64,000 bases of DNA from Dictyostelium discoideum (taxonomy: Eukaryota): the NCBI GenBank assembly GCA_000004695.1, contig CM000153.2:96001-160000 (forward strand), written 5' to 3'. Positions 6,023-55,575 of the stretch are shown one piece after another; the stretch's first letter is position 1; each line of letters starts with the position of its first letter. The position numbers and the translations under genes were made by a program. The notes beneath the pieces are model-generated. The model was not told where the DNA came from and made no database searches. It saw only the letters and a list, made by a program, of their open reading frames with translations.

Positions 6023-8770
<2,748 letters not shown>

Positions 8771-9575
8771 TTTGATACTTGTGGTAAAATTTTATCTTTT
8801 GGTCAAAAATAAAAAAAATAAAAAAAATAAAAAAAATAAAAAAATAAAAAAAATTAAAAAAAATAAAAAAAAATTAAAAAAATAAAAAAATAAAAAAAAC
8901 TCTTGGTATTAATTATAAAAATAAAAAGATATAGAATCTACAACTATCATATTAATATATGTCTACTTATTTATAAATAATTTTAAAAAGAATATTTAAA
9001 AATTAAAAAAAAAAAAAAAAAGACAAATTCGCTCAATATTCCGAAATTACAAAATTCACCATATAAGGGGACCGACAAAGTGTTTTAATTTTTACAAATA
9101 TTTATATTGCGAAACATTTTAAAAGAATATATTTTTTTTTTTTTGCATAAAAATTTCTTTATTATTTATTTTTTTTTTTTTAATTTTAATTTTTTTTCAA
9201 AAATGTATACCATAAAAATAGTAGCATAACTAAATTATAACTAAAGTTTGCTGTGGAGATGGAACATTTAATTTGTTCTTGCCAGATCACAACACCTATA
9301 AGTTAATAGATTATCTGATTACGGTGGGAAAAAATGATTTGGCGTTGATATAGTAAAGATTATAAATGAAAAATATTTTTTTTTCAAGGTTAATAGTATA
9401 TTCACACATTTATGGGTCTTTTTTTTTTTTTTTATTTTATTCTTTTTTTCATTTTTTCAATTTTTTTTTTTAGAAAAATTTGAATTATTCCAAAAAAAAA
9501 AAAAAAAAAAAACAAAGCGGGAAGGCAACACTTTTTTTTAAAAATTATTTCAAATAACAGCTAAAATTGTAAAAA

Positions 9576-10310
9576 ATGGGAAAAAGAGATAAAAAAATAA
9601 TAATAGAAGAACCAGAAGAACTAGAGGAAGCAGAAGATGTTTTTGAAGTTGAAAAAATTTTAGATAAAAGAGTTCAGCATGGAAGGATTCAATATAATGT
9701 AAGATGGATAGGATTTTCATCAGATTATGATACATGGGAAGATGAAGATAATGTTGCAGGTTGTCCAGAACTAGTTAAAGAATTTGAAAGTTCAAGACAA
9801 CAAGAAAAAAAAAAAAGTAAAAAAAGAAAACATACTATAATTAACGACGATCCAACTGCAGTAGAAATATCATCATCATCATCACCACCAACCACCAAAC
9901 CTTCATCATCAACAACAGCAGCAGCACCAGCATCATCATCAGCATCAGTAACAACAAAAACAGCAACAGCAACAGTAACAACAGATACATATTTTTCTAA
10001 TAATACTACATCAACACACCAAAAAACAAATCATTCAGTTGAGGTTGAAGAAAATATAAAAAATGAATATATAAAATTTGGTGTACCTTATATTGAAGGT
10101 GTTGGTTTTGAAAATGGTCATTGTGTTGAGGAGGTTATAGGTTGTAAACCCTTTGGTCAAGATAATACACTATTTTTCTTTGTTAAATGGAGAGACCAAG
10201 AAAAATTATCTTGGGTACCAAATGAAATCCTTAAACATAAAGAACCATTACAATTAATTGAGTTTTATGAAAGTAGACTTAAATTTGGTTATAGTGGTCA
10301 GCCAAGTTAA
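9576..10310 (+). CDS. Heterochromatin protein 1 (HP1) homologue with an N-terminal chromodomain and C-terminal chromoshadow domain, 244 aa.
   Basis: The chromodomain is EDVFEVEKILDKRVQHGRIQYNVRWIGFSSDYDTWEDEDNVAGCPELVKEFE. The chromoshadow domain is CVEEVIGCKPFGQDNTLFFFVKWRDQEKLSWVPNEILKHKEPLQLIEFYESRLKF. A Ser/Thr/Ala-rich hinge separates them. Dictyostelium has HcpA/HcpB/HcpC, and I cannot tell which paralogue this is. Confidence 0.85.
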   Translation: MGKRDKKIIIEEPEELEEAEDVFEVEKILDKRVQHGRIQYNVRWIGFSSDYDTWEDEDNVAGCPELVKEFESSRQQEKKKSKKRKHTIINDDPTAVEISSSSSPPTTKPSSSTTAAAPASSSASVTTKTATATVTTDTYFSNNTTSTHQKTNHSVEVEENIKNEYIKFGVPYIEGVGFENGHCVEEVIGCKPFGQDNTLFFFVKWRDQEKLSWVPNEILKHKEPLQLIEFYESRLKFGYSGQPS

Positions 10311-11110
10311 AAAATAAAAAAAAAAAAAAAATAAAAAACGAAGGATAAAAAAAAAAAAATAAAAAAATAAAAAAAAAGAAAACATCTGTACTTTATTAAT
10401 CTTAAATCTTCAAACAATTTCTTTTTTTTTTTTTTTTTTTTTTTAAATCTTTCAATAAAATATATTTCCTCATTTTTCTTCAAAACAAAAAGATAATTAC
10501 AAAAAATGAATGACAAATAATTAAATTCTAAAAATAAAAAAACATTCATTTTATGTATTTTATATTTTGTGTATTTTATGGGTATTCTATTTTTTTATAC
10601 AAAATCGATATTAAAATAAAAAAATTAATTGATTATTTTTTTAAAAAAAAAAATAAAAATAAAAAATAAAAATAATTTAAAAATAAATCAGATTCTCATT
10701 GTTTGGATGGGGTAATTTTTTTGATTATTTATTTTTTTTAATCAAATTTTAAAACGAATAATAAAAACAAATAAATTAATCCAATAAAAAAAATATAAAA
10801 TATAAAATAAAATTAATTATAATATCAAACCTTCTATTTTTTTATTTTTTTTTTTTTTTCTTTTTAAAAGAAAAAATTTAATAAAAACATTTATATTTTT
10901 TTTTTTATTAACAAAAAGAAATCCTCAAAAATATGAAAAAAAAAAAAAATAAAATAAAATTTAAAAAATATCTTGAACATCAAAGAAACTAAAATGTCAA
11001 AATGTTCGTTAATTTCCCAATGGACCATATTTTTTTTGTATTGGGGTGGTTTTTTTTTTTTTTAAAAATAGAATTTTTTTATAAAAAAAATAAAAAAAAT
11101 AAAAAAAAAA

Positions 11111-11145
<35 letters not shown>

Positions 11146-11174
11146 CCTTTTTACTAAAAATATAATAAAGAAGT

Positions 11175-11750
11175 ATGGTTATAAATAAATTAATATTATT
11201 AATTTTATTATTTTTTTGTAAAATTTCATATGTTTTTACACAAAAATTACCAGATGGATTTTGTCCATCACCTTTAATTTATAAAAATTCAACTGACAGA
11301 ATTAGTGATATCAATAGAGGTTATCAATTTATTGGAGAAACAAATTGTGTACAACCTTGTCCATCTTTGGTTTATTCAGAATCTGATTGGAAAAATTTTT
11401 TTGATGCTAGTTTATATGGTGGAGCAATTTCCATATTTTGTTCATTATTTTTATTAATAACCTATAGTCCATTAGTAAATAATAAACATAATAGACATAC
11501 TATTTCAATTATGTTTTTATTTTCTGGAATTTTTATAATGTTGGCATCAAATGGAAGAGTTTTTTGGAATAATAATGAAGGATATTTTGATAGAATTTGC
11601 CCTGAAAAAGGTAGATTTGCAAGACAATCTGATAGATATTGTTTAGCTATGGGAATATTTTATCAATTTGGTTGTTTAACTGGAATGATGTATGTAATTA
11701 TTGATCAATTATAAAAACAAGAAAATAGTAAATTATTAATAAATTATTTT

Positions 11751-11792
<42 letters not shown>

Positions 11793-12589
11793 GGTGGTGG
11801 ACAACATTATCTGTTGATGTATGGATGACAATTAAAAAGATTAAAATTTCAAATCGTCAAATATTTTATTATGCTTGTATTGTTAATTTTTTAGCGATTT
11901 TCTTAACATTTATACCAATTGCAAGAGATCAATATGGTGCTTCAAATTTTGGAATTGGTTGTTGGATTTTAGGTTTGTGGGATCAAGTTTTTGGATTTTG
12001 GGCACCATTAGGTATTTGTTTAACAATTGGTTGTATATTTATTACTCTTATAATGTATGAAATTTATAAAGCAACAGGTCAAATTAAAAAGAAATTATTA
12101 TTAAAATATTATAAACCACTCGTTTTGATAATTTTAATGTTTTTTGAATTTTTTTATATGTTTATTTTCATAACATATATTATTGATCATAGAAATAAAT
12201 ATAATGATGAAGTTGCTGAATATATAGTTTGTATATTAATAAATTCTGGAAATCCAAATTATGATGAAATTTGTAAAATTAAAAGATCAATTCCTCCTGC
12301 AGCTCAATTTTTATTCTTTTTATTTTCTAGATTAATGGGTTTTGAAGGTGTAATTTTCTATGGATTAACTAATCAAACTAAAAGAATATGGTTAAGATCA
12401 TTTTGGTTTAATAATAGAATTTCATTAAAATTTAGATCTTCTTTTAATATTTCTTCAAGTACAAATAGTAGTACAAATACATTTGAAAAACAAACTCCAT
12501 CACATTTAGTTGACCCAATTGATCAATTTGATAATATTGAAATTTCAAATAATCAAAATATAGAATTATCTCAAATCGAAAACAAATAA
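11175..12589 (+). CDS. Frizzled/smoothened-like 7TM receptor lacking the CRD (Fsl family). Two exons, 11175-11689 and 11794-12589, about 436 aa.
   Basis: Exon 1 has a signal peptide, a Cys-containing linker ([10 protein letters not shown]...[10 protein letters not shown]) and TM1-3. It ends ...GMM with the GTATGT donor at 11690 in phase 2. The acceptor is tag|G at 11794. Exon 2 (G|[15 protein letters not shown]...) carries TM4-7, followed by a frizzled-like K-T-x-x-x-W type motif ([15 protein letters not shown]). The junction is supported by the 7TM topology continuing across it. Confidence 0.6.
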
Positions 12590-13029
12590 AAAAAAAAATT
12601 AAAAAAAAATTAAAATAATAAAAAAAAAAAAAAATTAAAAAAAAAAAATAAAAAACCAAAATGTAGTTTTAGACTATCATTAGATGATTTAATTTGAAGA
12701 GAAAAAAAAATATCTTTTGTTGATTTGATTTAAAAAAAAAAAAAAAATTTGATTAGCAAAGCAAAGCGGCAGTGGTTTACAAAAAAAAAAAATTTTGTAA
12801 AGGGGAAGATTAAAAAAAAAAAATAATTAAAAAAAAAAAATATATTTTTGATCTTAGGTTTTGTGATTTTTAAAAATTAAGTACCCCATATTAAACAAAT
12901 TTTAACTAAATTTTGTAGTATGATGGTTTTTTTTTTTTTTTTTTATTGATTACTTTTACTTTTTTTTTTTTTTTATTACTATTATTTAAATTATTCTGTA
13001 TTTAATTATTTTAAAAAATATAAATAAAA

Positions 13030-14049
13030 ATGAAATTATTAATTCTTTTAATAATTTTAATTATAAATTTAAAATTGTATTTATGTAATTTAGAAATTGA
13101 AAATTTATTTATTGAATGGACAAATAAATATAATAAAATATATAGTAATAAAGAATTTTATATGAGATTTAATAATTTTAAAAAGAATAAAGAATATGTT
13201 GATCAATGGAATGAAAAACAATTGGAAACTATTTTAGAATTAAATTTTTTTGCTGATTTATCAAGAAACGAATATATAAATAATTATCTTGCAAGTTTTA
13301 TTGATATTTCAAATATTGAACAAAAGAATACTAAATATGAAGGAAATTTAAAAAATAATTTTAACAATTCAATAAAATCAATTGATTGGAGAAATTTTGA
13401 TGCAGTAACACCTGTAAAAAATCAAGGTTTATGTTCTGGAGCTGGTTATTCATTTTCTGCAATTGGAGTAATAGAAAGTTCACATTTTATTAAAAATAAA
13501 GAATTAATAACATTATCTGAACAAAATATTATTGATTGTACAACTGATATGGGCAATAATGGTTGTATGGGTGGACTTGCTTTAATTGCATTCGACTATA
13601 TTATTAAACAAAAAGGAATTGACAGTGAATTTAATTACCCATATGAAGGATACCTAATAGAACCATATGAAGGTAGAGGAAGATGTCGTTATAATTCATT
13701 CTATTCAAAAGCTTCAATTAGTTCATATATTGAAATTGAAAGATTCAATGAGAATGAATTAACTCAATCTCTAATAAAATCTCCAGTATCTGTAATGATT
13801 GATGCTTCACAATTATCATTTATGCTTTATAAATCTGGTGTTTACAAAGATCCATCTTGTTCAAGTACAATATTAAATCATGGAATATTAAATATTGGAT
13901 TTGGTGTGACACCTGAAAATGGTAATGAATATTATATTTTAAAAAATTCTTTTGGTTCGAAATGGGGAATGAAAGGTTACATTTATTTATCTAGAAATTT
14001 TAATAATCATTGTGGTATATCTTCAGTTGGAATTTCTGTTGTTATTTAA
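13030..14049 (+). CDS. Secreted papain-family (C1A, cathepsin-L-like) protein with the catalytic Cys replaced, a predicted pseudoprotease, 339 aa.
   Basis: It has a signal peptide (MKLLILLIILIINLKLYLC) and an I29-like propeptide (EWTNKYNKIYSNKEFYMRFNNFKKNKEYV). The active-site region reads QGLCSGAGYSFSA where papain has QGxCGSCWAFS, so the catalytic Cys becomes Ala and the following Trp becomes Gly. The His (NHGILNIGFG) and Asn (YYILKNSFGSKWGMKGYI) regions are conserved. Confidence 0.7.
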   Translation: MKLLILLIILIINLKLYLCNLEIENLFIEWTNKYNKIYSNKEFYMRFNNFKKNKEYVDQWNEKQLETILELNFFADLSRNEYINNYLASFIDISNIEQKNTKYEGNLKNNFNNSIKSIDWRNFDAVTPVKNQGLCSGAGYSFSAIGVIESSHFIKNKELITLSEQNIIDCTTDMGNNGCMGGLALIAFDYIIKQKGIDSEFNYPYEGYLIEPYEGRGRCRYNSFYSKASISSYIEIERFNENELTQSLIKSPVSVMIDASQLSFMLYKSGVYKDPSCSSTILNHGILNIGFGVTPENGNEYYILKNSFGSKWGMKGYIYLSRNFNNHCGISSVGISVVI

Positions 14050-42074: not shown

Positions 42075-43277
42075 ATGGGTACATGTGGATCGAAACCATC
42101 AAAAAATAAAAACAACAAAACAAATATAAAAAAGAATAATAAAAATAATAAAGATACAAAGAGATTAAGTTCAAATCTATCAAAGAATGGTGGTAGTACG
42201 TCATCATCATTACAACAATTTGATAATGGTATAAATGGTGGAGATGCAAAGAAATTTCATGACGAACATAAGAATAATTTAAATCAAGTTGCATTGAATT
42301 GGAAACCAAATACCATTGGAATTTGGAAGAGATCACATGAAAAGTTAGCAATTCATACCGATATACCAAGATTAGGACACAAGATTGAAATTATAGATAA
42401 AATGGATAGACTTCAAAATATTAGTTTTTCAAATGTTACTTCAATCTCTTTAAATAATAATATTATACCACCAAATAATAATACTGATATAAAGAGTAAA
42501 GATGATGGTGGTAATGATAATGATAATAATAAAGAAAATGAAGAACAACAACAAGAACAATTAGAACAACAAGAAAAACAATCAATTGAAGTAACACCAA
42601 AATCTGAACAATTAATTGAACATAATTCAAAATATACATCATTGACAACGTTAACATCACATGGTACATTTTCAACAGCACAAGTATTGAAAAAAGAAGA
42701 GGTAGTATATCAAGTTTTAACCAATTTAGCTCATCTATTAGATGGTGAGGAGAAAGAAAAGAGAATAAAAAGTACATTTTCAAACTATATTAAAGGATCT
42801 GGTGATATGTCACAACAACTATTGGCATTATTGGGTCAAGAAGTTGGTGAGAATAGTAGATTGATGCAATTGTTGAAAGTTTGTCATCAGAAAATCATTC
42901 TTCCAAGTTATTATTTCATCAAGGCAAATCTATTTGAAGAATTACCATTCAGAGATAAAAGAGGTAGTTGGAGAATGAGAATCACCTTTGAAACTGATGG
43001 ATCTGTGATTGCATCTCATTCAAAACGACAACAATCAACAGCTGGTGCTGAAAATGATCCTGAATTCGAATTTGAATGGTGTCTCTCCATTATCTTTGAT
43101 AAAGATATGGTCATTAGTGGTCTAAAGGTTGAAGTGACCGATTTAATCATTAGTAAAAATATTTCAGACGATAAAAAACAAGAAATTCAACGTGCTTTCC
43201 AAGTTTTACAACAAGCTACAAATAATACAAATAGTAATAATAATTCTGAACCAATACCATTAAATAAAGTCGATTAA
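42075..43277 (+). CDS. Hypothetical 400-aa protein with an N-terminal myristoylation/palmitoylation motif (MGTCGSK).
   Basis: Continuous ORF. Gly2, Cys4 and Ser6 fit the MGxxxS/T N-myristoylation consensus, with an adjacent Cys for palmitate. The C-terminal 200 aa (LLKVCHQKIILPSYYFIKANLFEELPFRDKRGSWRMRITFETDGSVIASHSK...) look globular, but I cannot assign a domain. Confidence 0.55.
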   Translation: MGTCGSKPSKNKNNKTNIKKNNKNNKDTKRLSSNLSKNGGSTSSSLQQFDNGINGGDAKKFHDEHKNNLNQVALNWKPNTIGIWKRSHEKLAIHTDIPRLGHKIEIIDKMDRLQNISFSNVTSISLNNNIIPPNNNTDIKSKDDGGNDNDNNKENEEQQQEQLEQQEKQSIEVTPKSEQLIEHNSKYTSLTTLTSHGTFSTAQVLKKEEVVYQVLTNLAHLLDGEEKEKRIKSTFSNYIKGSGDMSQQLLALLGQEVGENSRLMQLLKVCHQKIILPSYYFIKANLFEELPFRDKRGSWRMRITFETDGSVIASHSKRQQSTAGAENDPEFEFEWCLSIIFDKDMVISGLKVEVTDLIISKNISDDKKQEIQRAFQVLQQATNNTNSNNNSEPIPLNKVD

Positions 43278-43923
43278 ATTAATAAAATAAATTAATAAAA
43301 TAAATTGAAAATAAAAATAAAATAAAATAAATAATAAAAAAAAAAAAATAAAAAAAAAAAAAAAAATAAAAAAAAAAAAAAAAACAAAAGTCGATCGTAA
43401 TAATAATAATAATAATAATAACAACAATACCAATAACAAATAATATAAACACATTACTACCATAAAAATATACAATACTACTACCACTACAACTTGCAAC
43501 AACACAATTTCTTTTCTCTTTTTTTTTCTCACTCTTTTTTTTCAAAAATGTCTAAAAATAAGAGGCATCTATTTATTAAAAATTAATTAATATTTAAAAA
43601 TAAAAATGTAATAAATAATAAAATTTTATTAAAATAAAAAAAAAAAAAAAAATGAATAAAAATAGAATAATAAAAAAAAAAAAAAAAAAAAATCTAGATT
43701 AAAAATAGAAAATTCGATTGTTCGATTTGATTAGAAAAAAAAAAAAAAAAGTGTAAAAACGAATTTAGATATCTAAACCAGAGAGATCTTTTAAAAATTA
43801 TTCTTCTAATAAATACAACTATATCTTTTTTTTATTTATTAATCATTATTATTCATAAAAATTGATAATAAAAGGTTTTTTTTTTTTTTTTTTTTTTTTT
43901 GGTTTCAAAATTAAAAATATGTA

Positions 43924-44716
43924 TTAATTTGATGGGGGTATTTGTTGTTGTTGTTGTTGTGGTTTTTTAGTTGAACCAAATAAAGAAGTGATTCTATCAG
44001 AAACTGATTTTTGTTGTTGTTGTTGTTGTAATAAATTTTGTTGTTGTTGAATTGATTGTTGTTGTTGAGTATTTAAATTATTTGAAAGTTTATCTAATCT
44101 TGTCATAATGATTGCTAATTTACTATTGACTGCTAATAATTTACCCCTTGCATTTAATAACTTTTGAATATGTGGAAGTAATGGTGGTATTTGTGTAAGA
44201 TTATTGAATGAATCAAGTTCTAATTTTTATTTTATTCAATATTCAGTAGTTTGTGTATATATTTTTTGTTTAAAATTTCAATTTAAAAAATTAATTGATA
44301 AATAAATTGATTTACAATAATATTGATATTAATAATAGTAAAAGTAGTGGTAGTCATGGTGGTAGTGGTAGTGGTAGTGGTAGTGGTAGTGGTAGTGGTA
44401 GTGGTAGTGGTAGTGGTAGTGGTAGTGGTAGTGGTGGTAAGTATTTATTTTTAATAATATCTAAAAATATTTGAGAATAAAATGAAAAATAGAGGGAAGA
44501 AAAAGAAAAAAAAATAAAAATAAAAATAAAAAAGGGGCGGTGTGGGTGATAAAAAATGAAATTTAATTAATCCTTACCATGTGATAAACTATCAATTTGA
44601 TCTGAAAGTGTTTTTTGTGAATAATAAACTTCTTGAATCTTTGCATCACATTCCTTTACAACTGGTGATAATAATAAATAAAGTCCACTGGCTAAAATTG
44701 CTTTTGGATCTTGTGG

Positions 44717-44753
<37 letters not shown>

Positions 44754-44755
44754 GG

Positions 44756-44796
<41 letters not shown>

Positions 44797-44950
44797 GCTG
44801 TGGTTGTTGTTCTTCAACTTTATCTGTATTTATATTATCGTTATTATTTTGTTGTTGTTGTTGTTCATCTTTATTAATATTATTATTATTTATTTCCTCT
44901 TTTGGATTATTGTTTTCTTCAATTGCTGTATTAATTTCATTTTCACTCAT
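43924..44950 (-). CDS. Snapin (BLOC-1/BORC subunit) homologue. Two exons, 44950-44578 and 44219-43924, 222 aa.
   Basis: Exon 1 ends ...DQIDSLSH G with the GTAAGG donor in phase 1. The acceptor ttag|AA gives E-LDSFNNLTQIPPLLPHIQKLLNARGKLLAVNSKLAIIMTRLDKLSNNL, comparable to the human Snapin LDPYVKKLLNARRRVVLVNNILQNAQERLRRLN coiled coil. The 358-nt intron carries (GGTAGT)n. Confidence 0.65.
44344..44438. repeat. (GGTAGT)n hexamer repeat of about 15 units inside the snapin intron.
   Basis: Direct reading. This is a G-containing tandem repeat in an otherwise A/T intron. Confidence 0.9.
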
Positions 44951-45271
44951 TTTTTATTTTTTTTATTTTAAAAATAAATTAAAATAAAAAATAAAAAAAT
45001 AAAAAAATAAAAAAAATGTTCTATGGAAGCATTTATGAAAAAAAAAAAAAAAAAATAAAAATCTTACAGCAAATTTTTTTTTTTCATTTTTTTTTTCTTT
45101 TTTTAATTTTTATTTTTTTTATTTTTTATTTTTTATTTTTTATTTTTTATTTTTTTTAAAGAAGTTAAAAAACCCCACAAAGAAAAAAAAAGAATAAAAA
45201 TAAAATAAAGTACACAATCCACACACACACACCTCAAGTAAATACATCATATAAATTTAGAATATTATATA

Positions 45272-45856
45272 ATGAATTCAATGATTAGAAATGTACTTAA
45301 AACTACAACAAATGTTGGTTTAAAAAATACAAGTGGTTTAGTTTTTAGACAAACAAATGTTAATTTTTTAAAATCCTCAACAACCACAACAGCAATTAAA
45401 AGTGGAATTTTTGGAGAACTAATTACAAAAAGAAATTATCATGAAAGAGTATTGGATCATTATAATAACCCAAGAAATATTGGGTCATTCGATAAGAAAG
45501 ATATCGATGTTGGTACTGCAACCGTTGGTGCACCAGCATGTGGTGACGTTATGAAAATTCAAATCAAGGTAAAGGAAAACATTGTTGTCGATGTTTGTTT
45601 CAAAACTTTTGGTTGTGGTTCTGCAATCGCTTCAAGTTCATTGGCAACTGAATGGGTAAAAGGTAAAACATTAGATCAATGTCTCGAAATTAAAAATACC
45701 GATATCGCAAAACATCTCTCACTTCCACCAGTAAAAATGCATTGTAGTATGCTTGCCGAACAAGCTATCAAAAGAGCTATCTATGATTACAAAGTTAAAC
45801 ATGAAAAATTAAATTCATCTGAACAAACTACAATTGAAACTACTGCATCTTTGTAA
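45272..45856 (+). CDS. iscU: Mitochondrial iron-sulfur cluster scaffold protein IscU/Isu, 194 aa.
   Basis: An N-terminal presequence is followed by HYNNPRNIGSFDKKDIDVGTATVGAPACGDVMKIQIKV...CFKTFGCGSAIASSSLATEWVKGKTLDQCL...LPPVKMHCSMLAEQAIKRAIYDYK, which carries the three conserved Cys and the LPPVK motif of IscU. The symbol is the generic family name. Confidence 0.9.
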   Translation: MNSMIRNVLKTTTNVGLKNTSGLVFRQTNVNFLKSSTTTTAIKSGIFGELITKRNYHERVLDHYNNPRNIGSFDKKDIDVGTATVGAPACGDVMKIQIKVKENIVVDVCFKTFGCGSAIASSSLATEWVKGKTLDQCLEIKNTDIAKHLSLPPVKMHCSMLAEQAIKRAIYDYKVKHEKLNSSEQTTIETTASL

Positions 45857-46398
45857 ATAATTTTAATAATTTAAAAAAATAAATAAAAAAATAAAAAAAT
45901 AAAAAAAAAATAAAAAAATATATAAAAAAAAAAAAAACTATTATAAATTTAAATAATATTGCCTTCTTTACTTTGATATATACCATTTTTATTATTTATT
46001 TTTTATTTATTCATCCTTTTTTTTATCGGGGTTTGGTTTTTCTTTTTTTTTTTTTTTTTTTTTTTTTTTTCGCTAAAATTTTTACGCCCTAAAAAAAATT
46101 AAAAAAATATCTCGAAATTATCGTTTTTTAATTAATTAATTAATTAATTAATTTAACTTTTTTTTTTTTTTTTTTTTTTTTATTGTATTTCTATTTTTGG
46201 AAACTCTCATAAGGGTTGATATGTAAGTATTTTATTAAATAGAGATTTTTTATAGTCTAATTGTTTTTTTTTTTTATTTTTACATTTTATTTTTTTTTTT
46301 TTTTTAAATTTTTTAAATTTTTTTTTTATTTTTTTTTTATATTTTTTTTTTTTTTAAATTTCTGCTTTGTAAATTCACACATAGAGCAAGTTAAAGAA

Positions 46399-46639
46399 AT
46401 GTTTAAAATAATCAAGATTAGAAATTTAGTGAAAAGTAGTAATTTTTCATTAAACAGATGCAATTTTAATAATAATTATAGGAATATAAATTTCAAAGAA
46501 AATAGGCTTTTTTCAACCTCAAATAGTATTATAGATAAAGATAAAATAAATTTTCAAAATGATATAAATAATAAATCCTTTGATAATAACAACAACACTA
46601 ATAGCAATAATATTAACAACGAAAACAAAAACAACCAAG

Positions 46640-46670
<31 letters not shown>

Positions 46671-46731
46671 CAACTACAATAATAGTAATAATAATAATAA
46701 TAATGATAATAATGACAATAATAACAACACA

Positions 46732-46772
<41 letters not shown>

Positions 46773-47277
46773 TAATAATAATAATAATAATTATAATTAT
46801 AATAACTCATATTATAATAAACGTTTAAAGTTTGATAAAGATTTCCGCATACTATTGCTTAAATCTTTGGGTATTATGTTTTTAGTTAGGACTTATGTTG
46901 TAGAGCTTACATATGTATGTATCTTTATTTTATTTATTTTAATAAAGTAGGAGATGAACAATTTGTTTTATTAATATTATTGTATTTAATTCCCCTCTCT
47001 ATCTATCTCTCTCTATGAATCTTACACATATACACAGTGTCAAGGTACATCAATGGAGCCAACAATAAACACAGGAGATTTCATTTTTATTAATAAATTA
47101 AGTAAAGATTATAAAGTTGGTGATTTAATTACTGCTGCTTGTCCAACTAATCAATTTTCAATTTGTAAAAGGATAAGGTTTGTTGTAAGTATTTCAAAAA
47201 TAATATTATAATTATAATATAAATAATTAATAATTAATAATAATAATAATAATACTCTCATATTTACATTTTATATT

Positions 47278-47314
<37 letters not shown>

Positions 47315-47635
47315 AACAACTAATAGGAAGGTGATAGAATTATATTTGAATCACCAAATGGTTTAGAGGTATATGAAGTTCCAAAAGATTATGTTTGGAT
47401 AGAAGGTGATAATTATGACACTTCAAGAGATTCTAGAATTTATGGTGCAATCCCAAAAAGATTAATAACTGGAAAAGTTTTAATGAGAGTAAGTCTTAAC
47501 TTTATCATTCAATATTTATATATTGTAGACCTTTTACTAATATATTTCTTTTTTTTCTCTCTCCACCTAAAGTTTTATCCACCCTCTTTATTAAAAGGAC
47601 CTGCTCCAATTACATTAACAGAGAAAATAAATTAA
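46399..47635 (+). CDS. Mitochondrial inner-membrane peptidase subunit (IMP1/IMP2, signal-peptidase S26 family). Four exons, 46399-46914, 47038-47184, 47327-47488 and 47573-47635, about 295 aa.
   Basis: Exon 1 is MFKIIKIRNLVKSSNFSLNR...(Asn-rich, about 100 aa)...KDFRILLLKSLGIMFLVRTYVVELTY with the GTATGT donor. Exon 2 is CQGTSMEPTINTGDFIFINKLSKDYKVGDLITAACPTNQFSICKRIRFV with the GTAAGT donor, and it holds the Ser nucleophile in SMEPT. Exon 3 is EGDRIIFESPNGLEVYEVPKDYVWIEGDNYDTSRDSRIYGAIPKRLITGKVLMR, carrying the GDN...S.DSR box, with the GTAAGT donor. Exon 4 is FYPPSLLKGPAPITLTEKIN*. All junctions are phase 0 with good consensus sites. Confidence 0.7.
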
Positions 47636-47761
47636 TAAATAAATTAATAAATATATATTTGGTAACAATATTAATAAGATTTGAGAGAGAGAGAGGGAGA
47701 GATAATATTATATTATTTTGCATTTTATTTATTTATTTATTTATTTATTTGTTTTTTTTTG

Positions 47762-47806
<45 letters not shown>

Positions 47807-47818
47807 ATTTTATATTAT

Positions 47819-47950
47819 TTATAAATCCCATGATTTGATTTGTTTATCGAAACCACCAGAAAATAATAAATTTAAAGATTTTGAAATGTGAATACAATTA
47901 ATTGAAGAATTTAAATGTCCTTGATAAACTTTATCTAATGAATAATTAAT

Positions 47951-47998
<48 letters not shown>

Positions 47999-49181
47999 TG
48001 ATGTTAATTTAAAAGATTTTAAAGAACCATTTTCAAAAGCACAATAAATTAAATTTGTATCACTATCAAATTGTAAATCATTAATTGATGAATTTTCATT
48101 TGTATTGATTTTTAATAAATATTGATTATCATTAAAATTATTTAAATTATCACAAGACCAAATTTTAATTGTACCATCATTTCCACCACTAATTAATTGA
48201 TTTAAATTATCATTATAAATAATCTTTCTAATCCATCCACCTTGATTTCCTTTAATAATATTTAAACACCTACCACTCTTTTTTTTTTTAAAAAATAATA
48301 AAAAATAAAAATAAAATAAAAATAAGAGAATTAATAAAATAATTTATAAATTATGTTATTTATATATGCTTACATTAATATCCCAAAATCTAATTGTACC
48401 ATCATTTGAACAAGAATATAAAGTATTTAAATTTTTATTAATTGCAATTGAAGAAACCCAACCATTATGACCAATGAATACTCTTTTAAAATTAATATTA
48501 TTTAAATCAAATTGTCTAATTGTATTATCATCAGAACATGTAAAGAAATAACTTGAATTTGGGATTACAATCAATTGATTAATTATACCAGTATGTCCAA
48601 TGAATGTTTGAATAACTTGTAAATTATTATCCCAGTATTGAATAGTTTTATCATGTGATGATGTTAATAAATTTTCAAATCCATAATCATTATTGTTATT
48701 GTTGTTACTACTAAAAATAAAAGTACTCCAAATTCCACCTCTTTTATGAATATATTTTGATTTTAGTACTTTAAAAATACCATTATCAGTATCATTACCA
48801 CTAGTATTTTCAAATTTCCAAATTTTAATTGATTTATCAATTGATGTTGTAAATAATTTACCATCATCTGATGAATTTATACTTGTAATTATATCTGTAT
48901 GATTTTTCAACACATTTTTAAATAATTTTATTTCTTTATTATTTTCATCATCATTATTAATATTGCTATTAATATCAATTTCATCATCATTAATATACCA
49001 TAATCCATATTCAATGAATCTATCTTTTTTACTTCTATGACCAATTATACAATTATTATGAATAATGAATGGTGTAATATTATCTCTTTGAGTAATTTTT
49101 AAATTAAAATAATTTGTACCATTTGGAAATAACTTTTTATCTAATAATCTATATCTAATTTTATCTTTTTTATCATTTTCC

Positions 49182-49254
<73 letters not shown>

Positions 49255-49966
49255 TAATTAATTAAATAATAAATTAATTAAATAATGAAAAATAAAAACT
49301 TACAGATAATGATAATAAAATATTTTTTGATTTAATATTAATACCTTGAGATTTTAAAAATAATCTCATTGCAATTTGATCATCAATACATGGGTTTAAG
49401 AAATTGATTGAATCTTGAATAAATTTAATTGTTCTTTGATTTGAACGAATGAAATAGAAACCAGCACAAATATCGTCATCATCTTGTTGAACGTATAAAT
49501 CAATGTCGTCATCGTTAGTGAATTGATTTTCTTGATTAATATCTTGATAGAAATGAATGAATGGATCTCTTTTCCAAACTATATCAGTATCAGTCCATAA
49601 TACATTATAACCTTTTTTTAAAACATCCAATACTACTAATGGTTTTTCATTACAAATCGCTCTAAATCCAATATCACCATATGACTCGGCATTTTCACTA
49701 TAAATTCCTTTATTATCGTTTGTATTATTATCATGAAAAAGTTGTGTTGATGATGTTGAAGAATTTATAATATCATCTCTTGAGAATCTTTGACACTCAA
49801 TACCTTTAAACTCTGCAAAGAATTGATATGCTTTATCATCCATACAATATAAAATGTATCTACTTTTATCAATTGATAACTTTTCAAAACATTTCAATAA
49901 ATTCAATGTCATATCTCTAAATCCATAATTACACATTAATACAATCTTATCATTTTCTTTAATATA
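47819..49966 (-). CDS. agtA: GT77-type glycosyltransferase fused to a C-terminal WD40 beta-propeller, matching AgtA of the Skp1 glycosylation pathway. Three exons, 49966-49304, 49180-48374 and 48277-47819, 642 aa.
   Basis: Exon 1 is MEKKVEYIKENDKIVLMCNYGFRDMTLNLLKCF...VLWTDTDIVWKRDP...FLKSQGINIKSKNILLSLS, a nucleotide-diphospho-sugar-transferase/GT77 fold with a DxD-like TDTD, ending at the GTAAGT donor. After an (AAT)18 intron, atag|GAA gives ENDKKDKIRY..., followed by WD repeats (TTSIDKSIKIWKF, LTSSHDKTIQYWD, FTCSDDNTIRQFDL, SCSNDGTIRFWDIN). A GTAAGC donor and aaag|AGT acceptor lead into SGRCLNIIKGNQGGW...GGNDGTIKIWSC...FSGGFDKQIKSWDL*. The GT-plus-WD40 fusion and the size fit what I recall of D. 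discoideum AgtA, about 648 aa. The ORF-track start at 50020 is a non-ATG artefact. Confidence 0.65.
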
Positions 49967-50069
49967 TTCAACTTTTTTTTCCATGTTTTTTGGGTATAAA
50001 AAAAAAAAAAAAAAAAACAATTACAAAAAAATGATAAACAATTAAATTCTAAAAATAAAAATTTTTATC

Positions 50070-50100
<31 letters not shown>

Positions 50101-50173
50101 TATTTTTTCATCCAAAATGCAAAATTTATATTTTTTTTAAAAAAAAAAAAAAGAAAAAAAAAGAAAAGAAAAA

Positions 50174-50335
50174 ACTCCTCTTTACCAAAAGTAATAAAAA
50201 AAAAATTAAAGTTATTATTAAAAAAAATAATAAACCGATAAAAAAAAAAAAAAAAAAAAAACTCCTCTTTAATTTTTTTTTTTATTACTTTTGGTAAAGT
50301 TATTATTAAAAAAAATAATAAAACGATAAAAAAAA
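50174..50335. promoter_or_regulatory. Tandem duplication of about 87 nt in the agtA upstream region, with the internal 20-nt core inverted between copies.
   Basis: Copy 1 (50174-) is actcctcttta|ccaaaagtaataaaaaaaaaa|ttaaag ttattattaaaaaaaataataaaccgataaaaaaaa. Copy 2 (50261-) is actcctcttta|atttttttttttattacttttgg|taaag ttattattaaaaaaaataataaaacgataaaaaaaa. The core is the reverse complement, between short palindromic ctttaa/ttaaag ends. Confidence 0.5.
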
Positions 50336-50624
50336 AAAAAAAATTCAGACGTTTTGTGTGTCTTTTGGCTTAAAATAAAATTTTCAGTGTAAAAACATTA
50401 TTATTTTGTTAAAAAACATTATTAAAAAAAATCTTTTATCATGTAGCTAAGTTGTGTTGGCATCATTATCGTTTTTTCAGGTAAAAAAAAGCCTTATAAA
50501 AAAAAAAACAATTCTTTTAATTTTATTTTAATTTTTATTTTAATTAAATTTTTATTTTTAATTTTAATTTTAATTTTAATTTTTTTTTTATTTTTTTTTT
50601 TTTTTTTTTATTTTTTTTTTATTT

Positions 50625-50870
50625 TTTTTTTTCATTTAATATATCAATAATAATATTTTATCGAGAAACCACTTTTTAAAATAATTTATTTCTTTTTTTT
50701 TTTTTTTTTTTTTTTTTTTCATTTAATATATCAATAATAATATTTTAATTAAATTTAATTTTTTTTTATTTTTTTATTTTTCTTTTTTTTAAACTATATC
50801 TATCATTTATAAAAACTATTTTTTTTTTCGATTTATATTTATAATTTTAATATATCAACAATTATTTTAA
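50625..50870. promoter_or_regulatory. Direct repeats of the motif TTCATTTAATATATCAATAATAATATTTTA in the agtA/CUE-gene divergent intergenic region.
   Basis: Two copies identical over 30 nt, at 50631-50660 and 50719-50748, each follow a T-run. A third diverged copy is tttaatatatcaacaattatttta at about 50846. Confidence 0.45.
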
Positions 50871-51250
50871 ATTATTTTCCATTAATAATAAGAAATTTTC
50901 CAAATTTAGAAAATCACAAATTTTAATTTCAATTTTTTTTTTTTTTATTTTATTTTTTTAATTACAAAACACCAATTTTTATAATTTTTAAAAATCACTT
51001 TAAACAATTTTATTATTATTATTATTTTTTTTTTAACCACCCCCAAAAAAAAAAAAAATATAATTATTCTCTTTCTTTTTTTTTTTTCTTCAACACTCTC
51101 GCACACATAATTTAATTTATCTGTTATCTTTTCGTGTCATATAATTTATCATTATTAAATAATTAATAATAATAATAAATAAATAATTAAATAAATAAAT
51201 AAATAAATAATAATTTTTTATTACGTATATACACATAATATAAATTTTCC

Positions 51251-51287
<37 letters not shown>

Positions 51288-51312
51288 ATTTAAAAAATAT
51301 AACAATAAAAAA

Positions 51313-52900
51313 ATGGAGGCAGCAACAAATACTTTAAGATCAATGTTTCCAAAGAGTTCAGCAGACCAATGTGTTTCTGCATTAAAAGTTAATAATTGGG
51401 ATTTAAGTGCAACTATTGACTATATGTTAGCACAAACTGCAACTGAGGAACAACAAGTTCAACAACAAGTCCAACAACAAGTTAACCCTTCAATTCCACC
51501 ACCACCACCACCACAAACAATTCCACCACCATTACCAGCCAATGTAATTGAATCTGAAGAGGATAAATTATTAAAAGAATTTTTATTCCTTGAACAACAA
51601 ATACACATTAATAGAATTCCAACTCCACCACCATACAATCCTTCAACAAACAACATTAAACCATCAATTGCTGTAGTTGAAAAGGTTGAGCCAATTTCAA
51701 TTCCACCACCACCTCCACTACCACAACCAATTGTTCATGAACATCAACCACAACAAGAACAACAACAAGAACAACAACAAGAACAACAAGAAAAACAAGA
51801 GGAAGAACCAAAAACTAGAGAAAATAATAGTTTATTAAGAAATATTACAAATACTCTTAAAGAATTGGAAAATGAAGTTAGAAATTTAGTTATGGAAAAG
51901 AAACCACAACCAAATGTTGTTGAAACTGTTGAAACTACTGAAACCGTTATCTCAAATAATAACAACAACAATGACAATGTTGAAAATATTGCTCAAAATA
52001 ATATCGAACAATTAGTTGAAAAAGTTGAACAAGAACAACAAGAACAAGAAGAAGAACAAGAAGAAGAACAAGAAGAAGAACAAGAAAATAATGAAAACAA
52101 TAATAACAACAATAGTCAAATACCAAATGAAGTTAAAGTTGCAATCGATCAATTGGAATCATTATTTAACTCTTCATTAGAAAAAACTGAAAAGATTTTA
52201 AATGAATTAAAAGAAGAAATTACAAGTTGGAAAATTAAAGATAATGTTAAAACTTTCACCGTTACCGTTAGAAATGAATTATCTGATATGTTGGCCTCTT
52301 TAGCAAACTATATCTCACCAGAACAAACTGTAAATACTCAAGAAGAAATTGAAACTGGTTTAATTTAAACTTTGATTTTCAATATCATCATTATTTATTG
52401 TTGTTGTTCTTTTTATTTTCCTCTTTTCTATTTTTTTATGTACCTTTAACTCTTATTTATTTGGATTAAAATAGTTTGGTCTCTTTTTATTTCCTCTTTA
52501 AACTACTTTCTATCTCAACATAAAAAAAAAAAAAATAATAAAAAACTTTCTTCCATATACTACTTTCTATCCACTTCCTTTCTAAACTTTTTTTTTTTAA
52601 GATATAGTTCTCTCCCCTTTATAATTTTCCAATTTTATTGTTCTTTTTTTTTTACTAATAATAATCTTTTTTTTAAAATTTTTTTAGCAAGTTCAAATTC
52701 AAAGAAAGGAAGCAAAAAGACAAGAATTAGAGAATAAATTAAAAGAATTAAAGGAACATAATAGAAATTTAGAAGAGGAAAGAAGAATTGCAATTGAAAA
52801 GATTGAAAATAAATATAAACAACAAACAACAACTACAACCTCTTCTGGTAATCAAATTCCACCACCACCACCATATCCAGAAGAAAATTCTGAACAATAA
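51313..52900 (+). CDS. CUE-domain protein, Pro/Gln/Glu-rich. Proposed two exons, 51313-52329 and 52688-52900, about 409 aa. Alternatively a single exon ending at 52368.
   Basis: The N-terminal CUE-like domain is NTLRSMFPKSSADQCVSALKVNNWDLSATIDYML, with the MFP motif. Proline-rich PPPPPQTIPPPLP and an acidic coiled-coil follow. The segment 52688-52900 is an open, coding-like 71-codon frame: QVQIQRKEAKRQELENKLKELKEHNRNLEEERRIAIEKIENKYKQQTTTTTSSGNQIPPPPPYPEENSEQ*. It is immediately preceded by tttttag and an in-frame TAG, so it must be a spliced exon. The only phase-compatible donor upstream is GTAAAT at 52330 (...ISPEQT|). That would make a 358-nt C/T-rich intron. Confidence 0.55.
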
Positions 52901-53066
52901 ATAATATATTAAGTTTTAAATAAATAGTTTATGTATCTTTTAATATATACATTTTGTGCATTTTTTTTTTTTTTTAATATTATTATTATTATTTACAAAA
53001 AAAATTTATTTATTTATTAATTTATTTACAAGTTTATTTTGTTTATTTTTTTTTATTATTTTTTTT

Positions 53067-55575
53067 TTATCTAGTAATTGTATATTTATTATTACCACTT
53101 TTTAAAATCATTCCTTGATTATTTAAACCTTCTAAAACATCATTAAAATTTTCAAAAGGTAATTTATATTCTTTAACAATTTGTAAGAGTTCTTGTTTTG
53201 AAAAAGTTGATGTACCAGTTTTTGAGGCTTCTTTATTGAAAATTGAAATATATTTTTTAGATAAACCACTTTTACTCATACCAGTGGCTCTTCTAAAATC
53301 AATATTACCATGTTCATCTTCAAAAGTATCCAAAAGTGAATCTCTCATAATCTCTACGATATCGATTGCATCTTGTTCTGTAACGGTTTCACGTAATTCA
53401 AGTTTTGCTCTTGCTTCTGCTAAACGAATTAATGATTCCAATTGACGAGTTGTAACTGGCATTGAATCAGAACCTGTAGATTTTGAACGAAGTTCTAAAT
53501 AAAATTTTTGTATAACTTTAATTGCCTCTTCTGAAAGTCTTGGTGAAACATATTTCTTTGCATAACTTATATATTTTCTAAGGATAACTGTTGGAATTAA
53601 ATTAATCTCTTGACCATGAGTTATTAATAATTTTTGTTTTAATGGTAATGATTTATCATGATCTTCTTCATGAGTATATTGAGATGAATTTGTTGTTGCC
53701 GAGGATGATGATGATGATTGTTGAGGTTTTCTTTTTTTAACGCCTGATCCATTTGAATGAAGATTTAAAATATTATGAGAGATAATATGATCCTTTTCAG
53801 TGTTTGGTTTATCCATTAAAATGAAAATTAAATCGAATCTACTGAGTAGTGGTGCACTCATTTTGATATTTTCTGAAACTGTCTTTGCACGATTATAATG
53901 ACCCCCGACTGGATTAGCAGCAGCAACTACAGATGTACGAGCTGGTAAATTACAAACAATACCAGCCTTTGCAATACTAACCGATTGTTGTTCCATTGCT
54001 TCGAGTAGAGCAGGATGTTCATCTGTCATCTTATCGAATTCATCTATACAACAACAACCTTGATCCGCCAATACCAAAGCACCAGCTTCAATTGCAAAAT
54101 CACCTGAACCTTTTTCTCTTAACAATGTTACAGTTAAACCTGTTGTACTTGAATAGCCACCACAAACATAAACACCACGAGGTGATAAATGATAGATCGA
54201 TGTTAACATTTGACTTTTACCTAAACCAGGATCACCAACAATTAAAACATGTGGATCCGATCTAATTGATAGTTTATTCTTGTCGGATCCATTACTACTT
54301 CTATTTGGACTACCACCAAACAAAGCCAATGTTAAACCTGCTTTAACCAATTCATGCCCATAGATGGTTGGACAAATTGAATTTGAAATTAATTTGAAAA
54401 TATTTGGATGTTCAGCAATCTCTTTAATACCATACATATCCTTTAAAGAGAAGGAGGTAGTTTCAATCTTTCCTCCATTGCCACTAGTTCTCTTTGGGGA
54501 ATCTATAGAGTTTACATCTATATAAATGAGGAAAACAGGTTTATTTTGATTTTGAAAACCTGTTTCCTCTGCTCTTAATACTTTTACAACACCACTAATG
54601 GTCACAATATCGCCAGGTACAATAGTTTCAACCATTTCATCGGTGATTTCACATTCAAATGCTTTTGGTATACCACTTGATTCCTTTTGGTCGGCATCCT
54701 CTTGAATTCTAATTTTTTGCCAATCTATAGTGACGGCGGTTGATCTATCCGGTTCGAATATTTTACCTCTACAACCATGATTTAAACAATTTGAAGGAAA
54801 TGTAACTTTTCCCTCTGTAAAATATTGTGTTGGTGTACGTGTTGAACATTTATTACAAATGAATTGCATTTGAGTTACCAATGGTTTAACATTACCAACA
54901 CGAATTACAGTACCTTTTAATGAAACAAATTTATCAATAAGATTTGCTTTCAATTTCTTTAATTGTAATAATGGTTCAAAATGAAATATCCTTATATTTA
55001 TCTTTTTCTTTGGTCTTTGACTCTCTGAAACATTTTCATATAATACTTGATAAATTACAACACCTAAACAATTAATTACCATTTCTGAATCATCTCTTAA
55101 TCTAATTTCAAATTGATCTTCTACTCTATAAATTTGATTTTTTAATAATTGATAATCTAATGGTATTGTATTATTTTCATCTGGTGCATAAAGTGTCTAA
55201 AATAATAATTTTAATTAATTTAATAAATCAATTAATAATTTTTGTATTATTTAATTTTTATCTTACCTCATTACAAACATCTCTAAAAAGTGGAAGTGAT
55301 AATTGAATGAATTGATGTCTCTTTTCAAGTATTGCCTCTTGATTTAATTTTTCATCACCATTTTCAATAATTTTATTTGTTTTTGGTGGGAAATATAGTT
55401 TATATCCAATTAACTCATCCAATTGCGGATGTTGTTGTTGTTGCTGCTGTTGTTGACTTTGTTCTCTTTGTATAGTTTGTTGAGATTTAAATTGGACATA
55501 GTCATCACCTTCACTATTATTTCTTCGAATAATTTGTGTATTTGTGTTATTATTATTATTATTATTATTATACAT
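53067..55575 (-). CDS. mcm8: MCM8 (MCM-family AAA+ helicase, MCM8 subtype). Two exons, 55575-55267 and 55196-53067, 812 aa.
   Basis: Exon 1 (ORF 55258-55575) ends ...LFRDVCNE at the GTAAGA donor. The acceptor ttag|ACA gives TLYAPDENNTIPLDYQLLKNQIYRVEDQFEIRLRDDSEMVINCLG..., continuing into ORF 53067-55082. The MCM8-specific Walker A is GDPGLGKSQML, where MCM2-7 have GDP(G/S)(T/V)(A/S)KSQ. Long matches to human MCM8 include FAIEAGALVLADQGCCCIDEFDKM, ALLEAMEQQSVSIAKAGIVCNLPARTSVVAAANPVGGHYNRAKTVSENIKMSAPLLSRFDLIFIL and TTRQLESLIRLAEARAKLELRE. The zinc finger is CNKCSTRT...CLNHGC. Confidence 0.9.

Follow-up and report, generated by a model that had tools for sequence, protein, structure and literature searches.

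A three-exon GT77-WD40 gene of Dictyostelium discoideum AX4, most probably agtA, encodes a predicted cytoplasmic Skp1 galactosyltransferase

Do the GT77 glycosyltransferase domain and the WD40 propeller encoded on the minus strand of this stretch of DNA belong to one spliced gene, and is that gene agtA? The window, by which we mean the whole 64,000-nucleotide stretch analysed, has a GC content of ~20% and consists of coding islands amid extremely AT-rich spacers, as is typical of Dictyostelium. A bacterial-style ORF track is misleading here. The mechanical ORF list gives one frame at 49274-50020, which it opens at a TTG within a poly-T stretch, and another at 48356-48913, opened at a GTG; for exon 3 it holds no ORF whatever. 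The first-pass annotation had remarked that the track fragments the gene and mis-starts exon 1, which is true on both counts. It had also proposed a protein of AgtA type. AgtA is a CAZy GT77 α3-galactosyltransferase that acts twice, adding the fourth and fifth sugars, and completes the Skp1 pentasaccharide (PMC8724618).

Splicing the minus-strand sequence in silico (49984-49304, 49180-48374 and 48277-47819) gives 1947 nt with an open frame of 648 amino acids. Exon 1 (49304..49984, minus strand, 681 nt) starts at the ATG 49984-49982 and encodes residues 1-227, which include most of the GT77 catalytic domain. Exon 2 (48374..49180, minus strand, 807 nt, residues 228-496) continues in an unbroken frame from the C-terminal 55 residues of that domain through a linker to WD blades 1-4. 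Exon 3 (47819..48277, minus strand, 459 nt) encodes residues 497-648, with WD blades 5-7 and a run of 15 Asn, and ends with the stop codon TAA at 47821-47819. The two introns are short and begin and end with GT and AG. Intron 1 (49181..49303, minus strand, 123 nt, GTAAGT...TATAG) is mostly an (ATT)n run with a GC content of 3.3%, and intron 2 (48278..48373, minus strand, 96 nt, GTAAGC...AAAAG) has 7.3%, against 18-25% in the exons. Introns of 96-123 nt with very low GC are Dictyostelium-like. Reading through the exon ends leads to a stop within nine codons in intron 1 and within five in intron 2. An alternative acceptor AG at 48277-48276, from which exon 3 would run from 48275, was rejected, as it shifts the frame by 2 nt.

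The junctions proposed earlier, 49304/49180 and 48374/48277, proved exact to the base in the spliced sequence, as did the stop coordinate 47819. The upper boundary did not hold: 49966, which gave a protein of 642 residues, is off by 18 nt, and the ATG at 49984-49982 adds the missing first six. Position 49966 itself falls on a TAT codon (Tyr7), and the ATG that follows it, at 49953, lies in another frame. The start codon at 49984-49982 lies in the context AAAAAACATGG, and in-frame stop codons are found upstream of it. Extending the frame up to the TTG at 50020 was rejected too, as it would read the poly-T run as poly-Phe, again with in-frame stops further upstream. The same ATG in the same context is present at a syntenic comparison locus, L001, from the assembly GCA_054859355.1, which is labelled D. 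discoideum.

Both domains are recognised in the 648-residue frame, and the joining of a glycosyltransferase to WD40 repeats in a single three-exon protein, as first annotated, is borne out. The Pfam profile PF03407 (Nucleotid_trans) matches residues 41-282 with an E-value of 4.9e-27 and 95.7 bits against a cut-off of 22, covering profile positions 4-208 of 208. The corresponding nucleotide-diphospho-sugar transferase domain occupies 49016..49864 on the minus strand, with intron 1 inside it. The profile PF00400 (WD40) matches in five stretches, with an E-value of 1e-44.

The position of the first intron bears directly on whether the fusion is genuine. The junction between exons 1 and 2 falls between residues 227 and 228, inside the PF03407 match, and the GT domain is therefore complete only after removal of intron 1. 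A GT77 ORF that ended at 49274 would yield a truncated enzyme, lacking the part of the domain with the motifs FPNGT and HNNCIIGH. The two ORFs listed separately at 49274-50020 and 48356-48913 could be taken to mean that there are two genes, a GT77 ORF that stops at 49274 (TAA) and, downstream of it, a WD40 gene of its own, the fusion being an artefact of in-silico splicing. We give this reading a vanishingly small probability. The ORF to 49274 lacks the last quarter of PF03407 (residues 228-282), and these missing residues share a continuous frame with WD blades 1-4, in a frame of exon 2 that has no start codon before 48913. Intron 1 has the GTAAGT...AG signals and 3% GC, and it carries indels that are not multiples of three between flanks that are 98% conserved. 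Two orthologues, from Physarum polycephalum (named as a transcript) and Arcella, have both domains, and published work makes use of a complete AgtA cDNA (PMC9485057).

The pattern of differences between the window and L001 follows the proposed exons and introns. Exons 1, 2 and 3 are 98.1%, 98.6% and 99.5% identical, and all exonic indels are multiples of three (3, 3 and 3 nt in exon 1, 6 and 12 nt in exon 2, 27 nt in exon 3). Intron 1 shows 89.6% identity, and its indels, of 44 and 2 nt, are not multiples of three; intron 2 shows 85.4% identity, its indels measuring 4, 20 and 19 nt. The start codon, the stop codon and the GT..AG ends of both introns are all kept in L001. Co-linear, full-length homologues with both domains were found in D. 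dimigraforme, D. purpureum, Tieghemostelium, Heterostelium, Cavenderia, Acytostelium, Physarum polycephalum and Arcella; the Physarum polycephalum homologue is an entry named as a transcript, with both domains present.

On four independent lines, the GT77-WD40 fusion is real. The evidence that a single spliced transcript joins the three exons is indirect but strong, and comprises the domain that extends across intron 1, the conservation of exons relative to introns, the intron signals, the orthologues and the published cDNA. A GT77 ORF terminating at 49274, with the WD40 exons on a separate transcript, was the outcome that the first-pass annotation had set against its own reading; it is contradicted by PF03407, which spans intron 1 and whose final 55 residues are encoded by exon 2, the unbroken exon that also encodes WD repeats 1-4.

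The neighbours of the fused gene place it in a defined strain. Two single-exon ORFs on the plus strand match proteins of D. discoideum AX4 exactly: the one at 45272-45856, of IscU type, equals XP_639309.1 (DDB_G0283003), and the GlfB_C-like one at 42075-43277 equals XP_639307.1 (DDB_G0283067). In the homology search each amoebozoan species gave at most one GT77-WD40 protein, with the exception of the EukProt entries P0005 and P0006. Because the two neighbours equal AX4 proteins exactly and each named species gave a single GT77-WD40 protein in the search, we take the gene as agtA itself. Its dictyBase identifier, which we take to be DDB_G0283005, would fit the neighbouring identifier DDB_G0283003, and the length of AgtA, which we assume to be 648 residues, would fit the length found. 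The identifier DDB_G0283005 is not mentioned in the literature searched.

Our 648-residue product has no exact match in the protein collection searched. That the gene is a paralogue, built like AgtA but acting on a different substrate, rather than the Skp1 enzyme itself, we consider very unlikely. The product is 95-98% identical to its orthologues under the name D. discoideum and 81-87% identical to those under the name D. dimigraforme, and no second, lower-identity D. discoideum-like hit appeared in the homology search. The exact matches of the neighbours make the window AX4, and the length agrees with that presumed for AgtA. AgtA is described as the single such amoebozoan enzyme (PMC8724618; bioRxiv 10.1101/764241).

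We therefore conclude with high confidence that the locus is agtA of D. discoideum AX4, encoding a 648-residue cytoplasmic GT77-WD40 Skp1 α-galactosyltransferase. The identification rests on neighbours, architecture, orthology and published descriptions. The earlier "AgtA-type" assignment is thus sharpened to agtA by the architecture, the AX4 neighbours, the occurrence of a single GT77-WD40 gene and the literature. This gene shares with D. discoideum AgtA its organism (AX4), the GT77 domain at the N-terminus, the WD40 propeller at the C-terminus, a cytoplasmic topology and a distribution in amoebozoa; among the features compared, no differences from published AgtA were found. The gene agtA is already known, both for its GT77-WD40 architecture and for its part in the O2-dependent glycosylation of Skp1. 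D. discoideum AgtA, the UDP-Gal:fucoside α-3-galactosyltransferase of the Skp1 pathway, was reportedly described by Ercan et al. 2006 and Schafer et al. 2014, and its architecture and role in O2-dependent Skp1 glycosylation are said to have been in print since 2006-2014.

The N-terminal domain is predicted to adopt a retaining GT-A fold. An AF2 model of residues 1-294 (pLDDT 78.7, pTM 0.80) has its best Foldseek matches in glycogenin, LgtC, XXYLT1, a PBCV-1 glycosyltransferase (2p6w/2p72/2p73), the blood-group enzymes GTA/GTB and Gat1 (6mw5), at ~10% identity. The Foldseek probability is 1.00 for glycogenin, LgtC, XXYLT1 and GTA/GTB. Searching the PDB with the sequence of the domain returned chance-level matches only (E about 0.8), and no GT77 structure was found by sequence.

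Conserved acidic residues point to the probable active site. A candidate DxD motif, D132-T-D134 (49583..49591, minus strand), stands just after a core β-strand formed by residues 127-131 in the AF2 model; W130, T131, D132 and D134 do not vary among 10 sequences, and in a set of 16 they are at least 90% conserved. An acidic cluster, D168-D169-D170-D171 (49472..49483, minus strand), lies within an invariant QxDDDxxCAGF block, of which Q166, D168, D169, D170, C173, A174 and G175 are invariant in 16 of 16 homologues. Exon 2 adds the invariant motifs FPNGT (residues 245-249) and HNNCIIGH (residues 268-275). Together, D132xD134, the DDDD cluster and the HNNCIIGH block may form the metal and UDP-sugar site. 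The assignment of the catalytic DxD is taken over from GT-A enzymes, and which of the motifs binds the metal is inferred.

Residues of about 312-648 form a predicted seven-bladed WD40 β-propeller (47822..48928, minus strand, with intron 2 inside). The AF2 model of the whole protein has a mean pLDDT of 76. Between residues 316 and 647 it contains 28 β-strands, equivalent to seven blades of four strands, mostly with pLDDT 85-93. Within this region the Asn15 run (residues 592-606, window positions 47954-47998) is 27 nt shorter in L001 and falls in a low-confidence segment of the model, residues 592-603. The Asn runs of exon 2 differ from L001 by 6 and 12 nt; all these differences are in frame.

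The 648-residue product contains neither a hydrophobic anchor nor a signal peptide: the maximum Kyte-Doolittle mean over 19 residues is 1.29, reached within one of the propeller blades. Residues 1-19 are hydrophilic, with a mean of -0.55. The lack of a hydrophobic segment together with the hydrophilic N-terminus indicates that the agtA product is cytoplasmic.

The published work gives the two domains of AgtA distinct roles. Its C-terminal WD40 β-propeller modulates Skp1 independently of glycosylation and aids the addition of the second sugar (PMC8724618). Unmodified Skp1 is bound by AgtA and buffered through sequestration (PMC13278062), and trisaccharide-Skp1 accumulates in the agtA knockout (PMC3515798). 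AgtA is regarded as a dual-function, amoebozoa-specific enzyme that replaces Glt1 and Gat1 (bioRxiv 10.1101/764241). Its cDNA was cloned and an anti-AgtA antibody raised, and both are routinely used (PMC9485057).

In the mechanism proposed from this literature, the propeller would dock on Skp1, and the GT77 domain would transfer α-1,3-linked Gal from UDP-Gal, first onto fucose and then onto the first galactose. The acceptor would be the Fuc-Gal-GlcNAc trisaccharide on hydroxyproline-143 of Skp1. Binding of Skp1 by the WD40 domain would confer specificity for Skp1 and help with the second galactose. This binding is described as persisting whatever the glycosylation state, which would give the enzyme a non-enzymatic role in sequestering Skp1 in O2-dependent culmination. 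The donor, acceptor, linkage, Skp1 binding and role in O2-dependent development are drawn from the literature, and our analysis contributes the gene structure, domains, domain continuity, orthology, AX4 origin and lack of a membrane anchor.

The spacer upstream of agtA (49985-51312), 1.3 kb long with 11% GC, also belongs to a divergent gene on the plus strand, which begins at 51313. Within this spacer lies a tandem duplication of 88 nt (50207-50255 and 50295-50343), with 98% identity over 49 nt. Adjoining each copy is a 33-nt core, CTTTACCAAAAGTAATAAAAAAAAAAATTAAAG, which has CTTTA/TAAAG at its borders and points in opposite directions at the two copies. The plus-strand occurrence of the core is at 50180-50200 and the minus-strand one at 50279-50299, where chance would give 0.01 matches; L001 has only one copy, at 9717-9737. 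This looks like a lineage-specific duplication with a small inversion in the shared divergent promoter (window positions 50170-50345).

Beyond the two AX4 genes named above, the plus strand carries a multi-exon signal-peptidase S26-like gene at about 46261-47211, assigned from the L001 annotation, and a Gln/Glu-rich, unannotated ORF at 51313-52368, the exact sequence of which is absent from the protein collection. A long minus-strand ORF at 53067-55082 is putatively MCM-like. None of these neighbours (42075-47211 and 51313-55082) is related to the Skp1 pathway.

The window from 46500 to 51500 is syntenic with L001 positions 8543-13450 and 87.6% identical overall, with many indels. AX4 and L001 differ by 1-2% in exons and by 10-15% in introns, which is more than expected within one species. 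In a cluster look-up, 'Dictyostelium cf. discoideum' turns up as well, together with another assembly of D. discoideum, and the proteins differ in length. Deposits under the one species name D. discoideum thus seem to represent several diverged lineages.

The orthologues of Heterostelium album, Cavenderia fasciculata and Acytostelium subglobosum contain an additional B-box-like Cys/His insert (P0007 residues 74-102, P0008 residues 78-106 and P0009 residues 101-130). The insert sits in a variable loop of the GT domain; in D. discoideum AgtA this loop, at residues of about 70-108 (window positions of about 49660-49775), is disordered. On the inserts of P0007 (Heterostelium) and P0008 (Cavenderia), the profile PF00643 scores 27-29 bits, above its gathering threshold of 24.1. 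The orthologues of Dictyostelium, Tieghemostelium, Physarum and Arcella lack the motif, and the searchable papers make no mention of AgtA together with a B-box. It is possible, though somewhat doubtful, that the insert is a B-box zinc finger forming a third module within the catalytic domain of the Skp1-modifying enzyme in Heterostelium, Cavenderia and Acytostelium. If so, it could offer an extra protein-interaction surface tied to ubiquitin-ligase biology. There appears to be nothing new in D. discoideum agtA itself, and novelty, if any, looks to lie in these orthologues.

Each half of the protein has counterparts in known systems. RACK1/Asc1 and G-β are the best matches of the propeller among solved structures (TM 0.84-0.86, normalised to the target). 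They share the seven-bladed fold with residues of about 312-648 at 17-24% sequence identity. Unlike the agtA product, RACK1/Asc1 and G-β have no enzymatic partner domain, and they bind other partners. The plant rhamnogalacturonan-II xylosyltransferases RGXT1/2 belong, like AgtA, to PF03407/GT77 and add an α-linked sugar onto fucose (PMC2793385; PMC8724618). However, they are type-II Golgi membrane proteins without a WD40 domain, whereas the agtA product is anchorless and carries a propeller.

In the non-amoebozoan protists Toxoplasma and Pythium, the step that AgtA performs at the end of the Skp1 pentasaccharide, addition of the terminal α-Gal, is carried out by Gat1 (CAZy GT8; PDB 6mw5). Gat1 also binds and sequesters Skp1 non-enzymatically, as AgtA does (PMC13278062). 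It is a glycogenin-like GT8 enzyme that adds the fifth sugar only and has no WD40 domain, in contrast to the GT77 and WD40 domains of AgtA, and the two have been called evolutionarily unrelated (PMC13278062; bioRxiv 10.1101/764241). In the Foldseek comparison, the model of residues 1-294 matches Gat1 (6mw5) with an E-value of 6e-5 at 12% identity. Judged by this predicted structure, AgtA and Gat1 would be convergent in function within one broad fold, that of the retaining GT-A enzymes.
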